Virus record (IMG/VR): IMGVR_UViG_2740892426_000003
DNA length: 34,274 nt
Origin: a virus
Lineage: Duplodnaviria; Heunggongvirae; Uroviricota; Caudoviricetes
Strand: one strand, 5' to 3'
Part shown: positions 1,829-29,441 of the stretch, one piece after another
Layout: every line of letters starts with the position of its first letter
Numbering within the stretch: position 1 is the first letter of the stretch
Translations under genes and position numbers: made by a program
Notes under the pieces: model-generated
Seen by the model: the letters and a program-made list of their open reading frames with translations, nothing else
Databases searched by the model: none
What the model was told of the DNA's origin: nothing

Positions 1829-4483
1829 TTATCGTTGAAAAACCCAACACTTCACTGTCGCCGGGCGGCGCGATGCGGCTGGGTAACGGCGGTTAAATTC
1901 AGCGTTGATGCCGCTGTTAACCGTTCTGACTTCAATAAACTTGTGGGTACGGCTGGTTTTCAGTACCCGCTTTAAATCGCTGACTGGTGGGATCTGCTGG
2001 CGACGTTCGGTGGCCAGTTGAATAAAGTGGTTAAGGTTGACGGCGATAAGCTGTTCATCGCGCGAGTGGTTAAGCTGCGGTTCGTCGTCGCCATCGAGGA
2101 AGTCGAAAATATCCCAGAACTCCTGTACCAGAGGATGGTCGGCGCTGATAGCCTGCTGGCGTTCCAGACTGAGCTGGATAAACATTTCTCTGGTGGCCTG
2201 TAGCTGTTCCTCCGTGACCGGAATAACCAGCGCCAGCGCGTCGAGCAGCGCCATAAGCTGGGCGTGGTTTTTAATGATGCGGATATGGCGAATATCGGGG
2301 TGGGCGTGAAGCTGCTGCTCGTATAGCGGGATCTGCCGGTTGACGCACTCCAGCACGGCCTGTTCCGCCAGCGCTGCCTTCAGCATAAAGCCGGAAAGCA
2401 GCTCCACCGGCAGGCGTTCGAGCTGCTCGGCAGCGACCTTGGTCTGAGTATTCTGGCCGCTGCGGTCGGTGTACAGGTGAATAATACGTTCCAGCACCGG
2501 GTTAGAGGCGCTGACGTCGGCGTTTTGCGCAATTACAATCGCGCCCCGGAACGGCGGTTCATAGGTCTCGTTACCGCTGTTACGCAGACCGCGAGAACGT
2601 ACCGACCGCCCGTTGTAGGCGGTTTTCAGCTCTTCCCAATCAAAGCCGCGCTGTTTTGCACCCTCCTGATTACGGTCACCCTCGATCAGCACTACCGGCA
2701 TATTCGCCACCTGCGCAAAGTTGCGCGCGCGGGCGGCCAGCGTTGATTTAGACGGATCGAAACCTTCATAGTCGCGTCGACCCAACAGTTTCCAGAGGAA
2801 CTCTATCAGCGTGGTTTTACCGCTGCCGGGTTCGCCGACGATTTCCAGAAACGGAAAGCTCTTGTGCTTGTCGCGGATCTGTTCTGCAAACATCGTCCCA
2901 AACCAGAACGCCAGCGCCACAAAGCCCTTTGCGCCAAACGCCTGCCAGAGTAACTGGGGCCACTGGCTGTCCATCTGTTTTAAATTGTCGTTCAGCGTCA
3001 GGCTGACCGACTGGTTCAGGCTTTTAAGGCTGAGTTTGCCCATGTCGAAGAAGTCTTCTTCGTTGAGCGCGTACAGCCGACCATCGCGAACGGCCAGATC
3101 GTTGAACACGTAAGCGCGGTATTCTTTGCTATAGCCGATAAAATCGGTGGTCTGGACGGTTTTGATTTTGGGAAGTTGCTTGAGCAGCAGCTTATCTAAC
3201 TGCTGACTAGTGCCAGTAAAGATGCCGCCCTGTGCGATATGCAGCAGGCGCTTTTTGAATTCTGAGCCGCTGGAAAGTTGGGAGCCGGTGAAGGTGTTTT
3301 TTATCGGCGGCGTGTCGTCCGGGAAGTTAATGCGAAAGTAATACCAGCTTTCGTCGGTGATGGTGTTGGCCTGATAGTAGAGGGCGGTCGGGTAGCAGTT
3401 GGCGATCTCCACCACGGCGGACGACTCTTTCAGCGCCTTCTGTTTCAGCTCTTCTTCGCTCAGGTCGTCATTGGAGAATGAGATACTTTCATGCACCCGC
3501 ATATAGCGGTCAATATCCAGCTTGAACCAGAACAGGCGGCTGTCAAACTCGAAGTGGAACTCTTTACGCTCTGTCTGTTCGTGCATCAGCAGGGCTTTGG
3601 CGGCGGGAGAGGTGGCGATCAGCAGAGAGCCGTAGTAGCGGTATTTCTTCACTAGCTCTGGGTTAAGCCGGTCGCGTTGGTGCAAATCGTTCCAGTCCAG
3701 CTTGCTGCGGGAATGCGGCGTCTGTGCGGCGGCTGCGCTCCAGCCTTCGTCCCGGCTGCGCTTTACCCATCGCCGGGTATAGCTCATGCCCGCCTTGTCG
3801 TTATCCAGCGCCCATACCAGTAAAGGGCGCTTTTTATCCACGAACAGCGCGGCCAGTTGGTTTAACGCCTGCGCCGGATAGTTGTTGCAGGTCATCAGGG
3901 AAACGGCGGCGATGCCGTGGTGGTGCAGGGCGATAGCGTCAAAAATGCCCTCAACCAGCCAGATCTCCTGCTGCCCTTCCAGCTTCAGCGTTGGCAATTG
4001 CCACCATAGCCCGCTGTAAGCGCCGTGAAAATTGGCTTTGCGATCGCCGAAACGCTGCGGGCGGTCAACGATCCGCTCCCACCACACGCCGTCAGCCAGC
4101 GGGAAACGCACGGTGGCCGAGCCGATATCGCGCCGTGCGTCGTAGTAGTTCTCTTGAGCGTAACAGTCACGGATCAGCGAAAGATCAAAGCCGCGCATCT
4201 CGCGCAGGTAGGCATCGGCGGCGGCCTGTGGGTTTTCCGGGGTTGGGGGATATCTGTCTGACCAGCTTTCAAACAGTTCCGGGTACACCTCTTTGATATG
4301 GATTTCGGCATTGCATTTATTCAGACGACCGCAGCGCAGTACCCACGGGCTGATGGCGTTGGTGTATAGCTCCTTTTTCTGGCAGTCCGGGCAGACGCCC
4401 TGCCGCAGCCAGTCGCCCTGTTCTTTAAAGGAAAAGTCGGCCAGCAGTCGCCGCGTAATTTCCTGATGAAGTTGTGGTTGCAT
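1829..4483 (-). CDS. P4 alpha-like DNA primase-helicase (zinc-binding primase N-terminus, Toprim, D5/SF3-like NTPase)
   Basis: 884-aa ORF; N-terminal Cys cluster (CPDC...C..C), Toprim-like LVEGIFDAIALHHHG, Walker A GEPGSGKTT and Walker B-like VVLIEGD. Architecture as in satellite P4 alpha and PICI pri-rep proteins. Confidence 0.85.
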   Translation of the reverse strand: MQPQLHQEITRRLLADFSFKEQGDWLRQGVCPDCQKKELYTNAISPWVLRCGRLNKCNAEIHIKEVYPELFESWSDRYPPTPENPQAAADAYLREMRGFDLSLIRDCYAQENYYDARRDIGSATVRFPLADGVWWERIVDRPQRFGDRKANFHGAYSGLWWQLPTLKLEGQQEIWLVEGIFDAIALHHHGIAAVSLMTCNNYPAQALNQLAALFVDKKRPLLVWALDNDKAGMSYTRRWVKRSRDEGWSAAAAQTPHSRSKLDWNDLHQRDRLNPELVKKYRYYGSLLIATSPAAKALLMHEQTERKEFHFEFDSRLFWFKLDIDRYMRVHESISFSNDDLSEEELKQKALKESSAVVEIANCYPTALYYQANTITDESWYYFRINFPDDTPPIKNTFTGSQLSSGSEFKKRLLHIAQGGIFTGTSQQLDKLLLKQLPKIKTVQTTDFIGYSKEYRAYVFNDLAVRDGRLYALNEEDFFDMGKLSLKSLNQSVSLTLNDNLKQMDSQWPQLLWQAFGAKGFVALAFWFGTMFAEQIRDKHKSFPFLEIVGEPGSGKTTLIEFLWKLLGRRDYEGFDPSKSTLAARARNFAQVANMPVVLIEGDRNQEGAKQRGFDWEELKTAYNGRSVRSRGLRNSGNETYEPPFRGAIVIAQNADVSASNPVLERIIHLYTDRSGQNTQTKVAAEQLERLPVELLSGFMLKAALAEQAVLECVNRQIPLYEQQLHAHPDIRHIRIIKNHAQLMALLDALALVIPVTEEQLQATREMFIQLSLERQQAISADHPLVQEFWDIFDFLDGDDEPQLNHSRDEQLIAVNLNHFIQLATERRQQIPPVSDLKRVLKTSRTHKFIEVRTVNSGINAEFNRRYPAASRRPATVKCWVFQR

Positions 4484-4571
4484 TGCCAGTACCTTTATTC
4501 AGGTAATACTTACCCGTCGCACAGACACGTTGTTTATGCGTTGTGGTTGTGAGTCTTTTATTTACTGAGTG

Positions 4572-4802
4572 TTACGCGATTTTCTGCTTTTGCAGAAATT
4601 GCCCGCGTGTGGATAGCGGGATGTGTATCTTAGGATTCGGGCAACCGCTCGGTACCACTGTTCCCATCACGGTTTCCATTGCGATAAATGAAAACGAACA
4701 GTTAACGTTTTTGCACTGGTAATAGAGCTTACGTACCAGCGGTGACATATATTCGCTGCTGCGAATTATCGCCTTACCGTCGCAGTGTGGGCATTTCATC
4801 AT
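4572..4802 (-). CDS. ogr: Ogr/Delta-family zinc-finger late transcription activator
   Basis: MMKCPHCDGKAIIRSSEYMSPLVRKLYYQCKNVNCSFSF has the CxxC...CxxxxC zinc-finger of P2 Ogr. Start set at the ATG-ATG pair preceded by AAGGAGA; the ORF-track start at 4820 is probably an upstream overextension. Confidence 0.85.
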   Translation of the reverse strand: MMKCPHCDGKAIIRSSEYMSPLVRKLYYQCKNVNCSFSFIAMETVMGTVVPSGCPNPKIHIPLSTRGQFLQKQKIA

Positions 4803-5125: not shown

Positions 5126-5461
5126 ATGAAAGAATTTGGCATCCGTTTGAAGGAAGAACGTATCCGACTTGGACTTGATCAAGACGGCTTTGGACAACTT
5201 GGGGGCGTGAAGAAAAACGCACAAAGCAACTATGAGAATGGGTTGCGCAAGCCGGACAGTGACTATCTTGCTGGCATAGCGGCAGCGGGAGTTGATGTTC
5301 TGTATGTTCTAACAGGCAACCGCACGCCTGTGGTTACGTTGTCCAGTAAAGAGAGTGTGTTGGTGGAAAACTATCGTTCTGCTACGCCAGAACACCAGTC
5401 CACCCTTGACACGGTTAGCGCTGCGCTTGCGCAACCGATGAATTGTCGAAAAGTACAATGA
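5126..5461 (+). CDS. XRE-family helix-turn-helix transcriptional regulator (possible prophage repressor)
   Basis: 111-aa ORF; N-terminal GIRLKEERIRLGLDQDGFGQLGGVKKNAQSNYENGLRKPDSDYLAGIAAAGVDVLYVLTG is a Cro/C1-type HTH. First gene of a three-gene plus-strand operon. Confidence 0.75.
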   Translation: MKEFGIRLKEERIRLGLDQDGFGQLGGVKKNAQSNYENGLRKPDSDYLAGIAAAGVDVLYVLTGNRTPVVTLSSKESVLVENYRSATPEHQSTLDTVSAALAQPMNCRKVQ

Positions 5462-5491
5462 TTTATTAAATTCAGCTTATTAGGAGTAATT

Positions 5492-6580
5492 ATGGCAAAT
5501 GTCGGCTTTTCTTTTGAGGGGGTGATGATTGAAAGAATTATTGCTCATCGAATCTTCCCAAGGTCTCCCGATAAGCAAATGGTTCCACCTAAGTTAAGTA
5601 ATCAGTTAATAACGTTAGAACAAGATGCTTTGGATGCACTACAGGTTCGTATAACAGAAGCCTTAGGTAATAAATCTCATGGCATTGAAATGTCTATCAC
5701 TGATACCGGTGATGATAGTTTTTTTGCACTGACAACGTCTGTACTACATGTTGAAGGCGAATCATTTATTAACGTATCTAAGCGATTGGCGCATAAGTTA
5801 ACAGAAGCTCAATATAGTGCGGGGAAGGTTTCCGGTGGTGTGTTAGTAATCATTACGGGAAAAATTGGTGAACAAGCCTGCCCATTCTTTGCTGTACTGC
5901 GTGCTGAAATGCAAAACGGATTTCGGACCAATGATACCCCAGAGAAAATAGCGATGGAGTATATTGCTGACTTATTACTTACACCAACTCAGCGGCTTTA
6001 TAAAATAGGAGTGTTGATTGAGTGTGAGTCAGGCCATGAATTGATTGATGGTCGTTGTGATACGCAATATTATCGTTCATTTTTATTTGATCACTTGATG
6101 ACATCGACGGAAACTAAAAATGCTGCGGGGTATTTTTACAGTGTTTTTCTTGGAATGGGGATCGAAAAATCCTCCAAGAAATTGACGCAGGATTTTTTTG
6201 AACATACTCGAAATTTCATTAATCAGGCTCCAGTTGATGAGGAAACTAAGTTTGATTTACACGAGTCATTACGTTCTGAACTGAGAAGTCAGAAAGCAAC
6301 TTTGAGTACCGCTTCGTTTGCTACGGAACATCTTCCTCAAGAATTACAGACGAGCTATCAGTCATTTATGGCTCAAAAAGGTTTTCCGCAGAATGCAGTG
6401 TCTAAAGATACTGATTATATTAAGAAAAAGCTTCGTCGTAGAAGTAAATTAGTGTTTACAAGCGATGTATGGATATCCATACCACCAGATCAAGTAAAAG
6501 AACTGGTACAGATTGAACAAACAGATGATGATGAGTCAACTACACTTAAAGTCAAAGGGCGGTTGAAAAGTCAAGAATGA
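5492..6580 (+). CDS. NA37/YejK (NdpA)-like nucleoid-associated-protein-family protein; candidate DNA-binding sensor or antitoxin component
   Basis: 362-aa ORF with RBS TAGGAG upstream. By-eye similarity to E. coli YejK recalled from memory: I..H.I near the N-terminus, a GG-hydrophobic stretch (SGGVLVIITG), FLGMG...DFF, and C-terminal F..KG...TL.VKG. Very AT-rich relative to flanking phage genes. Stop overlaps the next start (ATGA). Confidence 0.55.
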   Translation: MANVGFSFEGVMIERIIAHRIFPRSPDKQMVPPKLSNQLITLEQDALDALQVRITEALGNKSHGIEMSITDTGDDSFFALTTSVLHVEGESFINVSKRLAHKLTEAQYSAGKVSGGVLVIITGKIGEQACPFFAVLRAEMQNGFRTNDTPEKIAMEYIADLLLTPTQRLYKIGVLIECESGHELIDGRCDTQYYRSFLFDHLMTSTETKNAAGYFYSVFLGMGIEKSSKKLTQDFFEHTRNFINQAPVDEETKFDLHESLRSELRSQKATLSTASFATEHLPQELQTSYQSFMAQKGFPQNAVSKDTDYIKKKLRRRSKLVFTSDVWISIPPDQVKELVQIEQTDDDESTTLKVKGRLKSQE

Positions 6581-7578
6581 TGAGTATAGAGGATTTTAGA
6601 CGTTATCTGGTTGAAAACCATGCTGCTTATGAAGCATGGGGTAAACATATTGCGTCTGAAATCAATGCGGCTTTGATTGAACAACTTGGTGAAGGGGCCG
6701 CCCAGCTCTTCATCAAGGTACCACCCACTCCGAGAGTTAAAGGTATCGAGTCCGCATTAGGGAAGGTTGGTCGTAAAGGTTATAACAACCCTGTTCAGCA
6801 GATGACGGATCTCGTTGGCGTTCGTTTTGTCGTTTTACTTTCTGAAGATATTGAGACAATCTGTAAAATCATTCAGAATAATGAACAATGGATAGCTGTT
6901 GTTTCTAAAGATTATCAGGATGAAATAGAGGTAAACCCTAAACTATTTGATTATCAATCAAAGCATTTTGAAATAAGGCCAAAGATAAATAGCGTTATAT
7001 CGGGAGTTAATATTACAACTGATATGTGCTGTGAAGTACAAATTAGAACATTATTGCAGCATGCGTATGCAGAATTAGTTCATGATAGCGTTTATAAACC
7101 TGTTGGCCCCGTACCGAAAAAAGCGGAGCGCCAAATTGCGCGTAGTATGGCTTTGATGGAAACAACAGATGAATTATTTTGTAATACAATGCGGCTTTTA
7201 TGTGATACTAATAAACCAAGAAATGATTTTTTAAAGGAGTTAAAAGATTTTTATATAAATAAAATTGGGAGGCAGTATTTAAATCAGGAAGATAAAATAA
7301 ATTATTGTTTTTTAGATGAGTATAGGTCGTTTATACAAGAAGATCTTTTGACTAATCTAATCGACCTTCTTGATAAGAAAAAATATATATCATATAAAAT
7401 CCAACAAAGGGCTACTGCCAATCTTTTTTTTGCGCAGCCAGTGGTCATTTTTACTTACTGGCTGGCAATAAATGAAGACAGTAATAAATTACAGCAAGAA
7501 TGGCCGTTACCTGGATATTTGAACGAATTGAGAATGATTTTAAGTGATGTTGGTGTAAGTAGCGGTATTGGATATTAA
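6577..7578 (+). CDS. RelA/SpoT-homologue nucleotidyltransferase (small-alarmone-synthetase/toxSAS-like) with ~150-aa C-terminal extension
   Basis: 333-aa ORF. Synthetase-domain motifs are visible: PRVKGIESALGKVGRKG, TDLVGVRFVV, and CEVQIRTLLQHAYAE (the E-[IV]-Q-I-R-T...H...AE signature). C-terminal third is K/N-rich, AT-rich and unassigned. Translationally coupled to the upstream gene. Confidence 0.8.
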   Translation: MMSIEDFRRYLVENHAAYEAWGKHIASEINAALIEQLGEGAAQLFIKVPPTPRVKGIESALGKVGRKGYNNPVQQMTDLVGVRFVVLLSEDIETICKIIQNNEQWIAVVSKDYQDEIEVNPKLFDYQSKHFEIRPKINSVISGVNITTDMCCEVQIRTLLQHAYAELVHDSVYKPVGPVPKKAERQIARSMALMETTDELFCNTMRLLCDTNKPRNDFLKELKDFYINKIGRQYLNQEDKINYCFLDEYRSFIQEDLLTNLIDLLDKKKYISYKIQQRATANLFFAQPVVIFTYWLAINEDSNKLQQEWPLPGYLNELRMILSDVGVSSGIGY

Positions 7579-14169: not shown

Positions 14170-14192
14170 CTTGTAACCACTGGCACTACAAG
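14170..14192 (-). promoter_or_regulatory. late-promoter activator site (CTTGTA-N11-TACAAG dyad) upstream of FI
   Basis: Dyad centred about 80 bp upstream of the FI start, just downstream of dam. Confidence 0.6.
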
Positions 14193-20507: not shown

Positions 20508-20530
20508 CTTGTAGGATAATGGGCTACAAG
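20508..20530 (-). promoter_or_regulatory. late-promoter activator site (CTTGTA-N11-TACAAG dyad) upstream of V
   Basis: Perfect hexamer inverted repeat with 11-bp spacer; same element found upstream of FI, X and in the O/P divergent region. Confidence 0.6.
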
Positions 20531-20569: not shown

Positions 20570-20905
20570 TTAACCGTGCGCAGCCTTCATCAGTGTATCG
20601 TTAATCCACTGGTTAACGCTTTTACCGGAGACTTCTGCCGCAACGTTAATGGCAGAGTGAATTTCAGGTGGAATACGCAGGCTGATTTTTCCGCTGGCCG
20701 GACGCAACGGCTCCCGGCCCCGTTCCTCGCAGTAAGCCAGATAGTCGTCTACCGCCTCTTCAAACGCTTTACGCAGATCGGCAACATTATCGGCATGAAA
20801 GCCAATGACATCCCGAATGCCTGCAACGTGACCAACAATGCATTGATCTTCATCGCTGTATTCAATTTTTGCGGCATAGCCTCTATATGTCATGGTATTC
20901 ATCAT
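20570..20905 (-). CDS. hicB: HicB-family antitoxin (RNase-H-like N-domain + C-terminal RHH)
   Basis: 111-aa ORF; YRGYAAKIEYSDEDQCIVGHVAGI...DLRKAFEEAVDDYLAYCEERGREPLRP is a HicB pattern; C-terminal ISLRIPPEIHSAINVAA is RHH-like. Confidence 0.8.
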   Translation of the reverse strand: MMNTMTYRGYAAKIEYSDEDQCIVGHVAGIRDVIGFHADNVADLRKAFEEAVDDYLAYCEERGREPLRPASGKISLRIPPEIHSAINVAAEVSGKSVNQWINDTLMKAAHG

Positions 20906-21165
20906 GGTGTTACCCCTACAGCTTCAAGGAATGTTCTGGCATCGCGAACCTGATAGGCTTTCGCTTCTTTTTCCGGGTGTGGACGATGAAATGAAGCCAC
21001 AACCTGATTAATTTCAAACCTGACGCGGGAACCGTTTCCTTCCGTAGCAATAGCCCCCAAAGCAATAAATAAGGCTTCTATTTTTCGCCATTCCAGCGTG
21101 ACAGGTGTTGGCGTAGAAAAAACAGCTTGTAAGGTTTTTTTATGTTTGGCGCTTAACGTATTCAT
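20902..21165 (-). CDS. hicA: HicA-family toxin (putative mRNA interferase)
   Basis: 87-aa ORF overlapping the hicB start; GNGSRVRFE...FHRPHPEKEAKAYQVRDARTFLEAVG resembles HicA/YcfA, with Arg where the usual GSH histidine sits. Confidence 0.65.
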   Translation of the reverse strand: MNTLSAKHKKTLQAVFSTPTPVTLEWRKIEALFIALGAIATEGNGSRVRFEINQVVASFHRPHPEKEAKAYQVRDARTFLEAVGVTP

Positions 21166-23566: not shown

Positions 23567-23952
23567 TTGCGTCCCCTTAAAAAGTCGAGCAGTTGACCGG
23601 GGTTATCCAGTTGTCGGATGGCCCATAGCAGCGCCTTGACGGTAAGCGCCGATGAGAGCAGCGCCCCGATACCGGGGGAGACTTTTTCCATCAGATGCTG
23701 CGGCAGATATCCGGCGACCAGCGCGGTAAACAGGTCGGCGGTCAGCAGGCCGATCACAAACGCCACGCAGAAGAAAATGATGCGCAGGAACAGGCCGATC
23801 TCTTTTTGCGAAATCACCAGCAGCAGCGCGCCACACAATGCGCCGAGCACTACCGGAGCCTGTAGCGTCGGGAACAGCGTGGCAATGGAGAATGCGCTTA
23901 CGGAAGCGGCGACGACGGTGCCGGTTACGGGTTCGTTCATAGTCAGTCCCAC
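23563..23952 (-). CDS. holin
   Basis: 129-aa ORF with multiple TM segments and charged C-terminus, immediately after X. Confidence 0.7.
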   Translation of the reverse strand: MGLTMNEPVTGTVVAASVSAFSIATLFPTLQAPVVLGALCGALLLVISQKEIGLFLRIIFFCVAFVIGLLTADLFTALVAGYLPQHLMEKVSPGIGALLSSALTVKALLWAIRQLDNPGQLLDFLRGRK

Positions 23953-24146
23953 AGGTTGATTCGTTGACGTGCGGTGGCGGGAGCCTGTTCCGGTACGTTA
24001 ACCGCCGTACCGTGTGGCAGGCGCAGCGGCAGTTCGCACAGGCGCGGGTTGTTCTGGTAAAGCTGTTCGACAATCCCGGCAGTGCGCCCGAAGATGCGCC
24101 AGCAGAGCTGATCGAGCGTTTCGTTTTGCAGGCTATAGACAATCAT
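23943..24146 (-). CDS. X: tail protein X
   Basis: 67-aa ORF at the X position with a LysM-like pattern (ETLDQLCWRIFG...). Confidence 0.8.
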   Translation of the reverse strand: MIVYSLQNETLDQLCWRIFGRTAGIVEQLYQNNPRLCELPLRLPHGTAVNVPEQAPATARQRINLWD

Positions 24147-24218
24147 GGTGTTTCCCGCGCGGCGTCAGGTGATGCGGGGATGGTGGCACAGGGGCGGGAA
24201 GTGAAGGGAAGGCTTCCG

Positions 24219-24241
24219 CTTGTAACTGAGGGCAGTACAAG
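24219..24241 (-). promoter_or_regulatory. late-promoter activator site (CTTGTA-N11-TACAAG dyad, extended to a 13-bp inverted repeat) upstream of X
   Basis: GCTTCCGCTTGTA...TACAAGCGGAAGC, centred about 84 bp upstream of the X start. Confidence 0.6.
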
Positions 24242-24260
24242 CGGAAGCGATTGGCGAGGG

Positions 24261-24581
24261 CTATGCCTCGTCGCTGTCGGTATTGATGATTTTCAGTTCA
24301 GCGGACTTCTGGAGCTGGATCAGCGCCGGAAGCAGAAGCGCGGTAGCCGACAGGCCATGCCCTAGCTGGCACAGGCTTTCAGCGGAGAATTCCAGCACGT
24401 TGCTGTCGGCAAAGGAGACGAAGGTTTTACCCAGAAAATGCAGGCCGTGACATAGTCCGGCGTAGCACTCTTCGCTGCTGTTGGCCAGTAGCAGAGTATC
24501 GTCGGCGTTCAGGTGTGAAATATCCATCTTGCGGATCGCGTCCGCCAGTTCAGAGGACAGAATATTGGTTTCAGGCACCAT
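24261..24581 (-). CDS. hypothetical protein (106 aa)
   Basis: ORF in GC-rich backbone-like DNA; overlaps the upstream 68-aa ORF by 11 nt; no motif recognised. Confidence 0.4.
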   Translation of the reverse strand: MVPETNILSSELADAIRKMDISHLNADDTLLLANSSEECYAGLCHGLHFLGKTFVSFADSNVLEFSAESLCQLGHGLSATALLLPALIQLQKSAELKIINTDSDEA

Positions 24582-24777
24582 GGCGCACCTCCAGCGGTTT
24601 GCAGGAGACGAACACCAGCGGGAAACCCGCCAGCAGGTCGCGAGCCTCGATTTCAGTTGTTGCCAGTACAGACACCAGACGCAGGGGCTGGATCTCGCGC
24701 AGCAGGCGGTTGGAACGGGCGTTCAGGAAGGTGTAGAGCTTTGAATGTGCGCGTATGTTACTATTAGCGGTAGCCAT
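24571..24777 (-). CDS. hypothetical protein (68 aa)
   Basis: Small ORF upstream of and overlapping the 106-aa ORF; the pair could be one frameshifted gene. Confidence 0.35.
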   Translation of the reverse strand: MATANSNIRAHSKLYTFLNARSNRLLREIQPLRLVSVLATTEIEARDLLAGFPLVFVSCKPLEVRHGA

Positions 24778-24866
24778 AGCATTAGCCTCTTTAATGTTGT
24801 GGTCAGAGGCCCGTCGGTGTTGGTAGCACCTGCGGGCTTCGTTCGTTTAAGGGTTGCAAAACATCA

Positions 24867-24918
24867 CGTAATTGCGATGTAATTACAACTACATCATTCT
24901 AAGGATTTTGTAATTACA
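24867..24918 (+). promoter_or_regulatory. operator-like palindromes (2 x TGTAATTACA plus a CGTAATTGCG half-match) upstream of the RHH gene
   Basis: Perfect 10-bp palindromes at about 24878-24887 and 24909-24918, 31 bp centre to centre; the second abuts the ATG. Confidence 0.55.
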
Positions 24919-25089
24919 ATGTCAAGTGAAAAGGCTAAAACAGATCAGTACCAACTTCGTCTTGCTCATGAATTTAGAAAGCAGCTTGAAGAACAGGCTC
25001 GTAAAGATGGAGATACCTCTCTCGCAACATGGATAAAACGCGTTTTGCGTAAGGAACTTCAGTCACGAGGTATTGAACCCAAAGGATAA
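24919..25089 (+). CDS. Arc/MetJ-type ribbon-helix-helix DNA-binding protein (56 aa; below the ORF-track size cutoff)
   Basis: Hand translation MSSEKAKTDQYQLRLAHEFRKQLEEQARKDGDTSLATWIKRVLRKELQSRGIEPKG; the strand-then-two-helices pattern resembles Arc repressor. Confidence 0.65.
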   Translation: MSSEKAKTDQYQLRLAHEFRKQLEEQARKDGDTSLATWIKRVLRKELQSRGIEPKG

Positions 25090-25190
25090 TTACGGAGATA
25101 TCAAGCAGCGCTAAGAAGTTAGGATTATTTGTTCAGCCCAGATTAGTCGATATGCACTGATTAACTTAAACATTGTGTGTAGGAGGTGTT

Positions 25191-25844
25191 GTGGATATTG
25201 AATTTTTTCTTAAAGAGCGCACAAGATTCGTTACTTATTTCTATGAAACGGCTGCTGCACCATTTGTTAACATCATGAATGATATTGAGAATGAAGTGGA
25301 ACCTTATATTCAGCCGTATGGTGAGAGTGATGAACCAGCTTTTTTAGATGAATGGTTAGATGCAAAGTCGGGATTAGAAACCTGTGGGCACCATGCATTA
25401 TCGATGCTTTCGTCTTCTCTTCAGTTGTACCTGAAGGCGTGGGTAGATCGCTTAGGATATCATAGCGTGAAATCTGATATAAATTTCAAGAAGGGTTGGT
25501 TTAATGGCTATCGTGAAATTTTCAACAAAATTGAGTTGGAAATGGCAAAATGTCCTGCAAATTTGGAAATAATTGAACAAATTCCCTTGGTGAGAAATCG
25601 TGTCCAGCATCCTGAGGAACTTACCTCAATTAATATTTCTCACTCAAAAAATGACTTGGAAAAATATCCTCGCCCATACTTTATTCAGGAGTGTGAGCTA
25701 CTTTTGGCTTCCGAACAGGAAGAAAAATCGTGGTTATTCCCACCTACAATATCCCCGACTAAAGAGAAAATATTCGAAGCTATCAGAAATGTTGAAATGC
25801 TGTGCTCTTGGTTAGAGTCTGAGTATTGGTCGGCTCTTGACTAA
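25191..25844 (+). CDS. hypothetical 217-aa protein, AT-rich orphan cargo (candidate effector or toxin partner of the upstream RHH)
   Basis: Start set at GTG 4 nt after a consensus AGGAGG (ORF track begins at TTG 25173). Markedly AT-rich versus the flanking head and lysis genes; no motif recognised. Confidence 0.65.
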   Translation: MDIEFFLKERTRFVTYFYETAAAPFVNIMNDIENEVEPYIQPYGESDEPAFLDEWLDAKSGLETCGHHALSMLSSSLQLYLKAWVDRLGYHSVKSDINFKKGWFNGYREIFNKIELEMAKCPANLEIIEQIPLVRNRVQHPEELTSINISHSKNDLEKYPRPYFIQECELLLASEQEEKSWLFPPTISPTKEKIFEAIRNVEMLCSWLESEYWSALD

Positions 25845-25879
25845 ATGTAGAATAGAGTAAGTCAGCGTCAAATGAAAAC

Positions 25880-25897
25880 AGCCCGACGAATCGGGCT
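25880..25897. terminator. hairpin terminator between convergent cargo genes
   Basis: 7-bp stem AGCCCGA/TCGGGCT with CGAA loop; T-rich on the minus-strand side, A/T-rich on both sides. Confidence 0.45.
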
Positions 25898-25933
25898 ATT
25901 ATGGCTATCAGGCAAACACTACCTTCAAACTCA

Positions 25934-26170
25934 TTATGCCGCCTCAATACCCGCTCTGGTTAACATATAGTGGCCCCAGTGGGTTTTCTTCAGATAACCG
26001 GCCAGTTCCATCTGTGTCACAATAAATTCAGCGTTAACTATTTCTATATCTGCGTAGTCGGCCAGATCGCGCAGCGGCCATGTGCTGCGAACGCCGACGC
26101 TAACTATGGTATCTCTGATGCGGCGAGCGGTATCGGTCATTGGGCGGGTTCTGGCTGCCTGAATAGTCAT
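25934..26170 (-). CDS. hypothetical small protein, possible winged-helix DNA-binding protein
   Basis: Start set at ATG (MTIQAARTRP...) preceded by GGGGA; immediately downstream of L. Confidence 0.45.
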   Translation of the reverse strand: MTIQAARTRPMTDTARRIRDTIVSVGVRSTWPLRDLADYADIEIVNAEFIVTQMELAGYLKKTHWGHYMLTRAGIEAA

Positions 26171-26285
26171 GGTATTTTCCCCTGTAAGTTCTTTCGTTGG
26201 GTCAGACACTAACTCTGGTGGGGAAGGGGCATCCAGCGTTCAGATGAGGCGATACGGTGATGCGCATCGCATATCCGTACTCTTT

Positions 26286-26753
26286 TTATACCAGAACAAA
26301 CGTGCTACGCGGCTTGCCCAGAATATCCCGCACTGCGAAGCGGGCATCGCGCGCCAGATCGTCGGCGGTGCTTTCCTTTTGTTCCACCAGTTTGCTGCCG
26401 TGGGCGGTGGCATCAAAGTTACGGTAGCGTTCCAGCAGGTTTGCGTGCGTCAGGCTGTACACCGCGTGGCGGTAGCGGTGCAGGTTAACGCTTGCGCCGT
26501 CCAGTCGTTCGGTCGTGGTTTCCGCAATGCAAGTTGTGCCACGGTTTTCCTGTTCCAGCCGCCATTCCCGCAGGTCGTCGTTTACGCTGGCCAGCGCAAT
26601 CAGCAGCGCCTCGCGCAGCCGTTCGTTGGTGACGGTGCTGTCCAGCCGTTGGGTCGCACGCAGATGTTGCGTATCAATATCGGGAAAGAAAGGGTGGTTG
26701 CTGATAACCAGCCCCGGCAGACTGGCGGCGGGGGCAACCTGAATAAAGCTCAT
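26286..26753 (-). CDS. L: head completion/stabilisation protein L
   Basis: Start set at MSFIQVAP (preceded by AGGGAG); FFPDID...ERYR pattern resembles recalled P2 gpL. Confidence 0.85.
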   Translation of the reverse strand: MSFIQVAPAASLPGLVISNHPFFPDIDTQHLRATQRLDSTVTNERLREALLIALASVNDDLREWRLEQENRGTTCIAETTTERLDGASVNLHRYRHAVYSLTHANLLERYRNFDATAHGSKLVEQKESTADDLARDARFAVRDILGKPRSTFVLV

Positions 26754-29418: not shown

Positions 29419-29441
29419 CTTGTAATCATCCGGGTTACAAG
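29419..29441. promoter_or_regulatory. late-promoter activator site (CTTGTA-N11-TACAAG dyad) in the O/P divergent region
   Basis: Same dyad as upstream of FI, V and X, centred 72-84 bp from the O and P starts. Confidence 0.55.

Follow-up and report, generated by a model that had tools for sequence, protein, structure and literature searches.

Gene content of the junction between L and X

We analysed a stretch of 34,274 nucleotides (nt), IMG/VR record IMGVR_UViG_2740892426_000003 (the window), and within it a gene island at the junction between the genes for head completion protein L and tail protein X, where a protein of 217 amino acids (aa) is encoded. The window is a P2-like prophage with its late genes on the minus strand. 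Its integration site adjoins E. coli yfgI/yfgH, with a host flank that matches E. coli chromosomes at up to 99.7% identity; the sequence recurs on a 197-kb contig of Joint Genome Institute metagenome 3300029064 and on the IMG/VR contig UViG_2531839446_000022. The lineage is rare, in that the flanks of the island are matched in only four of 5,426 complete E. coli genomes.

The backbone is represented on the left by X (23943-24146, minus strand; Pfam Phage_tail_X, E = 2.3e-17) and on the right by L (26286-26753, minus strand; Phage_GPL, E = 5.5e-45; annotated as 155 aa in relatives). As a preliminary description of this DNA had stated, five open reading frames (ORFs) split the two genes: minus-strand ORFs of 106 and 68 aa beside X, plus-strand ORFs of 56 aa (a ribbon-helix-helix protein, RHH) and 217 aa in the centre, and a minus-strand ORF of 78 aa after L. 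The central pair is AT-rich, as had also been said, with a GC content of 0.38-0.42 over positions 24800-25850 against 0.55-0.62 in the flanks (about 39% for the pair, about 58% for the backbone). It had further been called convergent with its neighbours, which holds for the right neighbour only; the left neighbour is divergent. The 217-aa gene (25191-25844, plus strand) starts with GTG, and the consensus Shine-Dalgarno (SD) sequence AGGAGG reported for it is present at 25181-25186, 4 nt before the start codon. Homologues of the protein start at the same residue (MDIE...).

A variable centre between conserved outer genes

The preliminary description took the whole of the stretch between L and X, some 2.1 kb, to be a cargo island. 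We found that this applies to a centre of about 1.1 kb, from 24813/24849 to 25932, where a hairpin accompanies the RHH and 217-aa genes. The window and three E. coli relatives are 91-96% identical in nucleotides over positions 23900-24812/24848 and 25931/25933-26900, and the sequences between these blocks are entirely different. The proteins of 106, 68 and 78 aa are 86-100% identical in the E. coli relatives (86-98% for the 106-aa protein), and the corresponding ORFs are therefore part of the lineage backbone. Conserved backbone, which had been named as the finding that would speak against an island, thus describes the three outer ORFs and not the centre. It had also been proposed that related prophages might carry other cargo at this junction, and they do: in each E. 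coli relative the variable centre opens with a homologous RHH gene, which is followed in E. coli GMF054 and 24A16 by a Phd-like gene and a Doc toxin gene, and in E. coli L725 and CEC15 by genes for a 177-aa hypothetical protein and a RelE/HTH protein.

That the whole 2.1 kb is ordinary lineage backbone with no accessory role is hardly credible. The 106-, 68- and 78-aa ORFs, together with a dyad in front of X described below, are conserved in all E. coli relatives, as such a reading would have it; for the centre it is refuted, as the central 1.1 kb is wholly different between relatives and has 39% rather than 58% GC. The 217-aa gene was moreover absent from the 5,426 complete E. coli genomes, even in a search mode for distant DNA, and megablast and tblastn searches found neither the island nor the 217- and 106-aa proteins in the INPHARED phages.

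At the nucleotide level the homology is a mosaic. Positions 24756-25092 are about 79% identical to an RHH block of Pectobacterium and Erwinia, and positions 25189-25836, that is the ORF alone, are 75-78% identical to genes for homologues of the 217-aa protein in Aeromonas and Pectobacterium, a source that differs from that of the RHH block. The best explanation of the variable centre is a horizontally acquired, AT-rich cargo gene in a slot downstream of a small RHH regulator.

A preprint of 2026 surveyed 1,511 P2-like prophages and reported a defence hotspot 'downstream of GpL' that holds 16% of the systems in P2-like phages (bioRxiv 10.64898/2026.02.27.708500), so the hotspot as such is already known. 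The slot in the window has the same position, between L and the next late gene, as this hotspot and those of P2 and P4 (Rousset et al. 2022, PMC9122126), and shows the same turnover of cargo among close prophages, much of it defence or toxin-antitoxin genes. The text consulted describes neither the RHH/antisense-RNA platform nor the late-promoter dyad of X described below, nor the family of the 217-aa protein. The survey detects genes through DefenseFinder and PADLOC models, which explains why it missed the 217-aa gene: the family is without a PADLOC model.

Family, predicted fold and motif of the 217-aa protein

The 217-aa protein gave nothing significant in Pfam, NCBIfam, PADLOC or the PDB sequences, and its only assignment is to a PHROGs family of unknown function (phrog_28203). 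The check with a defence-system finder that had been suggested for it thus came back empty, with no PADLOC model matching. It is nonetheless no orphan, as it had been called: we found 226 close homologues, all hypothetical proteins, which are 48-79% identical among the matches listed and come from Marinobacter, Aeromonas, Pectobacterium, Vibrio, Pseudomonas, Methylomonas, Raoultella and Thermodesulfovibrionia. At the level of 50% clusters the family has 607 representatives, of which 434 have E <= 1e-10.

AlphaFold2, run on a 43-sequence alignment, gave a confident all-alpha model (pLDDT 87.6, pTM 0.86) with helices at residues 3-33, 52-87, 103-113, 125-139 and 191-216. We scored conservation on an alignment of 106 cluster representatives whose mean column identity is 26%. 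Arginine R135 is the sole invariant column, and at least 90% of the sequences keep N136, H140 and E54. R135 to H140 (R-N-R-V-Q-H; codons at 25593-25610, plus strand) form an Rx4H motif that the alignment and predicted secondary structure place at the end of helix 125-139, so that the protein, in which no motif had been recognised, does carry an RNxxxH motif. E54 lies at the start of helix 52-87, and the predicted structure has an insert between helices 2 and 3.

In HEPN proteins the motif arginine is followed by a polar N, D or H, an insert lies between helices 2 and 3, and helix 2 bears a conserved acidic residue close to the motif (Anantharaman 2013, PMC3710099). All four features described there (the motif at a helix end, the polar residue after R, the insert between helices 2 and 3 and, with E54 as its candidate, the acid in helix 2) are found in the 217-aa protein, which very probably belongs to the HEPN superfamily. 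Two further elements stand out. An acidic, proline-rich loop at residues 36-51 (25296-25343; EPYIPPYSEDxEPPF) is very highly conserved, with P38, E48 and P49 kept in at least 90% of the sequences. In the 50-residue insert 141-190, between helices 3 and 4, F164 is conserved in at least 90% of the 106 representatives, and D155 and P162 are invariant in the closer 43-sequence alignment. Other HEPN families, to our knowledge, have no counterpart of this loop or this insert, which may serve in sensing or in RNA binding.

Genomic company of the homologues

We examined seven contexts of homologues outside the window. In a Pectobacterium island the homologue lies with an integrase gene, PDDEXK_4 and Gabija-like OLD/UvrD genes; in an Aeromonas island with DpnII/MboI, SocA_Panacea, SIR2_2 and Fic; on a marine contig with BrxR, DUF4917 and SIR2_2+DUF87; and in a Raoultella element with an integrase fragment, PIN_8 and UmuDC. 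The other homologues lie in an unrelated Vibrio prophage, a Pseudomonas variable region and a Methylomonas islet. Comparison of the upstream and downstream ORFs across the seven contexts revealed no conserved neighbour and no RHH-like ORF beside the homologues. Eight plasmids carry distant homologues (31-38% identity). The gene therefore behaves as a solo HEPN gene, with no conserved partner gene and with prophages, islands and plasmids as carriers. The 78-aa gene was considered as a partner and rejected, as it is conserved in relatives that lack the HEPN gene.

Support for and against a defence RNase

The suggestion that the cargo is of a toxin or abortive-infection type agrees with the predicted HEPN fold and the conserved RNxxxH motif. 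On balance we favour the reading that the 217-aa protein is a solo anti-phage abortive-infection RNase. HEPN_RiboL-PSP (PF18735) is the commonest Pfam match below threshold in the family (6 of 43 and 7 of 106 members, best E = 8.9e-4); in one relative, P0036, the match spans residues 78-161, the segment that holds the motif, and sub-threshold matches to PF18731 occur as well. The Ribo L-PSP-HEPN clade is described as distant kin of the lactococcal abortive-infection proteins AbiD and AbiF (PMC3710099). In the 463-aa protein P0152 the family domain (residues 1-219) is fused to a C-terminal AbiU2 HEPN domain (E = 5.9e-18), which makes it a tandem-HEPN protein; in P0154 a PIN_10/DUF5615 segment is attached at the N terminus, and P0194 ends in a weak GIY-YIG segment.

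As a precedent, nothing comes closer than HepS (STM14_3211) of the Salmonella prophage Gifsy-1, a solo HEPN abortive-infection protein with the residues R100, N101 and H105, which rests as a tetramer, is opened by a tail-tip peptide and cuts tRNA anticodon loops with no partner gene (Sargen et al., Nature 2026, PMC13043305). Compared by description, HepS is like the 217-aa protein in being encoded by a prophage, in having no conserved partner gene and in its R-N-x3-H site. Other likenesses go less far. The family differs from the Ribo L-PSP-HEPN/AbiD-AbiF clade (PF18735) in having no L-PSP fusion and no ParB neighbour, and its membership in that clade is not established. The 217-aa protein is about 80 residues longer than HepT of the type VII system HepT/MntA and other HEPN toxins (SO_3166, 7ae2, 8xdj) and, unlike HepT/MntA, neither it nor its homologues in the contexts examined have an adjacent gene for an MNT nucleotidyltransferase antitoxin.

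Several results weigh against a defence RNase or against its HEPN assignment. None of the curated HEPN models reached threshold: PF18735 scored 14.1 and 12.7 bits in the two relatives scored, against a threshold of 28.4, and had no match in the 217-aa protein of the window itself. Profile searches of the PDB sequences returned no HEPN chain, and no chain at all for the protein or its profiles at E <= 10 other than the noise given by profiles A1 and A4 (coronavirus nsp3 and an 'addiction module antidote', E = 0.12); a Foldseek search of the model against PDB and BFVD had no match at E <= 0.001. An hhalign comparison of the family profile with the AbiU2 domain of P0152 was not significant (probability 0.12), although its only local alignment, likewise non-significant, set R135-N136 on the R-H of the AbiU2 sequence RHEHLAH. 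PADLOC has no model for the family; HEPN proteins typically lack an insert like the one of 50 residues between helices 3 and 4; and the Pseudomonas and Methylomonas contexts contain no known defence genes. R135, H140 and E54 would have to be adjacent and exposed to form a site, and the defence role, to which we give somewhat better than even credence, is a prediction, as are expression, toxicity and protection against phages.

The protein might instead have an HEPN-like fold and be no defence RNase, serving a regulatory or ligand-binding role, as do MtlR and the substrate-binding subunits of nucleotidyltransferases, or acting as a counter-defence or satellite-competition factor. Some HEPN families are non-catalytic (PMC3710099), and P2-like phages also carry a few anti-defence genes, according to the hotspot preprint (bioRxiv 10.64898/2026.02.27.708500); the lack of a PADLOC or curated-family match and the contexts with no defence genes would fit as well. 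However, non-catalytic families typically lose the Rx4-6H motif (PMC3710099), which is here the best-conserved feature, and members of the family are fused to AbiU2 and nuclease-like domains. Four of the contexts are defence islands, and the same slot elsewhere holds Thoeris or AbiT. We therefore regard a non-defence role as unlikely.

A Pfam HAD match of the 217-aa protein (E = 0.02) is spurious, and kinship with the HAD+TM system of Rousset 2022 was rejected; HAD+TM is a two-gene system. Membership of the protein in a particular named HEPN family is not established. The 217-aa family has no model in Pfam 2025, NCBIfam 20 or PADLOC 2.0 and no functional annotation in PHROGs, and our literature search found no paper that names it or describes a matching defence system. 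The hotspot is already known, and so are, as a class, the solo HEPN abortive-infection proteins of prophages; what is new is the family.

The RHH gene and its candidate operators and promoters

The 56-aa protein (24919-25089, plus strand) had been described as an Arc-like RHH protein, with which our searches agree: it matches PHROG 228, an Arc-like repressor (3.5e-6), and shows by eye a strand-helix-(G-D-T turn)-helix pattern. Its matches to Pfam Arc (E = 0.038; 14.3 against 20.4 bits) and to NCBIfam YlcI_YnfO_N (E = 1.3e-3; 18.8 against 30 bits) are below the cut-offs, and its orthologue in strain 24A16 is assigned to the YlcI/YnfO family by PGAP. Neither the protein nor its profile had a match among the PDB sequences.

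The palindromes noted in front of this gene are present as TGTAATTACA(A) at 24878-24888 and 24908-24919, 31 bp apart, and GTAATTAC has no other exact copy in the window. They overlap a candidate -10 element and the RHH start codon, and we predict them to be operators: O1 (TGTAATTACAA, 24878-24888) and O2 (TTGTAATTACAA, 24908-24919, abutting the start codon), each invariant in six loci, with a degenerate third copy, GTAATTGC, at 24868-24875. Both operators and the degenerate site are invariant in five Pectobacterium and Erwinia loci whose RHH proteins are 84-86% identical to that of the window, and other RHH alleles have inverted repeats of their own at the same intergenic position. A candidate promoter for RHH and cargo (TTGCAA-18 nt-TGTAAT, 24854-24883, plus strand), in which TTGCA is invariant in alignment A5, would have its -10 inside O1; it was read from the sequence, and the promoter scan made no call for it. 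On the minus strand, a sigma-70-like promoter (TTGACA-18 nt-TAGAAT, 24896-24925; 11 of 12 matches) points toward the 68/106-aa operon, with O2 in its spacer and O1 at about +1; its -10 is not kept in the Pectobacterium loci, and its support is weak.

The RHH and 217-aa genes had been seen as a self-regulated module. The palindromes at the promoter do make the RHH gene a candidate for autoregulation; the RHH is, however, not specific to the 217-aa gene. This bears on a second possibility, namely that the two form a type II toxin-antitoxin pair, in which the RHH protein would bind and neutralise an HEPN toxin and regulate its own operon, and which would stabilise the prophage rather than sense phages. 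A small RHH gene followed on the same strand by a larger toxin-like gene, with palindromic operators, is the arrangement of RHH-antitoxin operons; HEPN toxins are known from HepT/MntA, and the neighbouring variants of the slot hold Phd/Doc and RelE/HTH. Yet the RHH is homologous in relatives whose unrelated cargo brings its own antitoxin, and in Pectobacterium and Erwinia islands an RHH 84-86% identical, with the same operators, has no downstream gene. Nor does any of the seven other HEPN contexts have an adjacent RHH or a conserved small partner; the RHH block and the HEPN ORF match different nucleotide sources, and the two genes are separated by 101 nt, with no translational coupling. The RHH thus occurs with other cargo or none, and HEPN homologues occur without it, which indicates that it is not the dedicated partner of the 217-aa protein, and a toxin-antitoxin pair seems to us distinctly improbable. 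Most simply, the RHH would be a slot regulator, predicted from these sequences to repress its own promoter and whatever lies downstream.

A candidate antisense RNA and two conserved genes on the left

On the other side of the RHH gene lie the 68-aa gene (24571-24777, minus strand; phrog_20855, 1.5e-45) and the 106-aa gene (24261-24581, minus strand; phrog_19484, 3e-59). The two share 11 nt, where the 68-aa gene ends and the 106-aa gene begins. The 68-aa protein is Icd-like, scoring 24.1 bits against NCBIfam phage_ICD_like with its cut-off of 25 (E = 2.8e-5). The 106-aa protein, a conserved gene product of unknown function, has only 27 homologues that we could find, all hypothetical, and its AlphaFold2 model, a low-confidence helical hairpin (pLDDT 70, pTM 0.41), is not informative.

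A candidate cis-antisense small RNA (sRNA) of about 80 nt (24772-24850, plus strand) faces the 68-aa gene across its SD and start codon. It is preceded by a candidate extended -10, TGnTACTAT (24756-24764, plus strand), that was recognised by eye and is invariant in alignments A3 and A5. The plus strand of 24772-24850 has a minimum free energy of -39.1 kcal/mol (z = -5.46) and folds into two hairpins. Hairpin 1 is invariant, and its loop CCUCU complements the SD of the 68-aa gene as an anti-SD. Hairpin 2 is terminator-like and is followed by UUCGUUCGUUU. It covaries: among 29 sequences 97.6% of the cells are paired, five pairs show double changes (e.g. AU8/CG8/UA7/GU6), and the covariation of 0.193, against 0.092 in shuffles, was reached by none of 500 of them, while slid registers fall to 35-52% pairing. 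Frequent G.U pairs fit the plus strand only. The 88 bp over the first codons, SD and leader of the 68-aa gene keep 80-83% identity between loci, including those in which identity of the 106-aa protein drops to about 42%. The candidate sRNA lies next to the 68/106-aa genes in more than 40 loci in several enterobacterial genera and IMG/VR, and an exact-pattern scan of IMG/VR with its hairpin found 32 DNA stretches.

This arm resembles SymR/SymE in having a short structured RNA opposite the ribosome-binding site and start codon of a small ORF. However, the match to Rfam SymR (RF01809) is far below gathering (33.8 against 61 bits, E = 5e-4), and the 68-aa protein has no SymE match. Nothing in the window reached any Rfam gathering threshold, and C4 had no match. 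The arm also resembles P1 c4-icd-ant, where an Icd-like leader ORF overlaps the next gene. By the tests run it is a member of neither system, and both likenesses are analogies. A search of the literature on Icd-like genes with antisense RNA found no such report.

A portable platform with a cargo slot

The two arms together constitute a platform, with the candidate antisense sRNA and the Icd-like 68-aa and 106-aa genes on one side, and the RHH gene and a cargo slot on the other. The 106-aa gene, with or without the 68-aa gene, is divergent from the RHH gene in Leminorella, Kosakonia, Erwinia, Pectobacterium, Symbiopectobacterium and other genomes, and in 27 of the 34 instances of the motif in IMG/VR. 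RHH homologues (42-57% aa identity, with a conserved C-terminal WIKRxxRKELQxRGIExK) precede unrelated cargo in relatives: in Kosakonia sacchari the slot after the RHH gene holds Thoeris (ThsB, 3e-125; ThsA, 8e-201), in K. arachidis AbiTii (3.8e-45), and in IMG/VR many small two-gene sets that are toxin-antitoxin-like by eye. In Pectobacterium and Erwinia the RHH gene is followed directly by a convergent P4-type integrase gene, with no cargo between.

The platform was seen beside a P4-type integrase gene (426-427 aa), with its slot empty, at loci L029, L030 and L027 of Pectobacterium and Symbiopectobacterium. Its presence beside such integrases indicates a regulator/sRNA module common to P2-like phages and to integrase-bearing islands or satellites. 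Two IMG/VR stretches, L038 (positions 6169 and 7475) and L054 (2542 and 3759), carry tandem copies of the platform 1.2-1.3 kb apart, which suggests that slots can be duplicated or stacked. In Leminorella grimontii (L017), the region at about 3415-4581, downstream of the RHH gene, yields repeated peptide artefacts (YPRWRGEL, SPLARGT and FIPAGAGN), which we take to be translated type I-E-like CRISPR repeats; an array may abut or fill the slot there. In a P2-like IMG/VR record with X and L flanks (L041, UViG_3300013182_000039), the slot holds, at 486-1403 relative to the motif, a gene for a 305-aa protein that by eye looks like an Rpn/YhgA-type PD-(D/E)XK recombination-promoting nuclease.

Taken jointly, these findings can be drawn into a picture that we offer tentatively, at rather less than even odds: a new and widespread family of single-gene HEPN anti-phage nucleases (607 representatives in Proteobacteria, Thermodesulfovibrionia and plasmids), sensing through the 36-51 loop and the 141-190 insert, would be carried on an undescribed portable platform, made up of the sRNA-controlled Icd-like/106-aa operon and the RHH-gated slot, that moves between P2-like hotspots and integrase-bearing islands and loads Thoeris, AbiT, toxin-antitoxin or HEPN cargo.

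Candidate late-promoter dyads and a probable operon boundary

In front of X lies a perfect dyad, CTTGTA-N11-TACAAG (24219-24241), a candidate late-activator site. The window contains four perfect copies (14170-14192, 20508-20530, 24219-24241 and 29419-29441), each preceding the opening gene of a late block (sheath, V, X and O/P) by 56-84 bp, where shuffled sequences average 0.74 matches even with up to two mismatches allowed; X and O each have their ATG 84 bp from the dyad centre. P2 late promoters have a partially dyad-symmetric Ogr site near -55, and X of P2 is read from PO. We predict that the dyads are binding sites of the late activator. X has a dyad of its own here and, unlike in P2, seems to be transcribed late in one unit with the lysis genes, apart from O-N-M-L.

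At the other end of the slot, a GC-rich hairpin (25877-25900; AGCCCGA-cgaa-TCGGGCT at 25880-25897) lies between the convergent transcripts. A hairpin terminator had been reported after the 217-aa gene, and the hairpin is there; it is called on the minus strand, however, where it has the better U-tail (GUUUUCAUUU), with an A-tract on the other side. We therefore rejected a dedicated plus-strand terminator and regard it as a likely bidirectional one. In E. coli L725 the hairpin recurs behind the first cargo gene with 82% conservation. With a late promoter of its own for X and with the transcript of L and the 78-aa gene ending at the hairpin, the L-X junction would be an operon boundary, at which a cassette in antisense orientation can insert without cutting off X, the lysis genes, R and S. 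The 78-aa gene itself (25934-26170 on the minus strand, or to 26209 for a 91-aa product from an upstream GTG; 95% identical in relatives) has faint winged-helix hints, with weak Mrr_N and WHD matches and phrog_331 at 1.3e-6.

Two further places in the window carry genes of a similar kind. A HicB/HicA pair (20570-21165, minus strand; HicB Pfam 2.7e-18) separates S from V immediately before the V dyad and is a second cargo slot at an operon boundary, in a place equivalent to the L-X slot. Beside gpD, positions 5126-7578 (plus strand) hold a helix-turn-helix gene and genes for a 362-aa NA37 nucleoid-associated-like protein and a 333-aa RelA/SpoT-domain protein (Pfam 1.7e-18) that matches the PADLOC candidate PDC-S33 (1e-13); these may be a third defence-type cargo, alarmone-synthetase-like.

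Proposed mechanism and implications

We propose that RHH and cargo are co-transcribed from a promoter that the RHH protein would repress through the two TGTAATTACA operators. Transcription limited in this way would give low, steady expression of the HEPN protein in the lysogen. The protein would remain inactive until a superinfecting phage supplies a trigger, probably as an oligomer, a resting state that we propose because HEPN sites are composite. Once triggered, a composite site of R135, N136 and H140 would cleave RNA (tRNA, mRNA or rRNA), leading to arrest of the cell and an aborted infection, an outcome modelled on systems of the HepS, AbiD/F, AbiU2 and RnlA type.

The RHH/antisense-RNA platform is the less expected part of these findings. 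The locus illustrates how the P2 late region could tolerate cargo: the slot would mark the limit of an operon, flanked by a terminator and, across from it, by the separate late-promoter dyad before X, and it is predicted to be served by a reusable regulator, the RHH with its allele-specific operators, and by an adjacent operon under antisense-RNA control. The invariant sRNA hairpin provides a practical sequence tag for finding further cargo slots. If the 217-aa protein is protective, it adds a family that current defence finders miss, with hundreds of sequence clusters across distant bacteria. It would then be a second, independent prophage-borne HEPN protein that senses and kills alone, beside HepS, which would help in asking how solo HEPN RNases stay silent and what triggers them.

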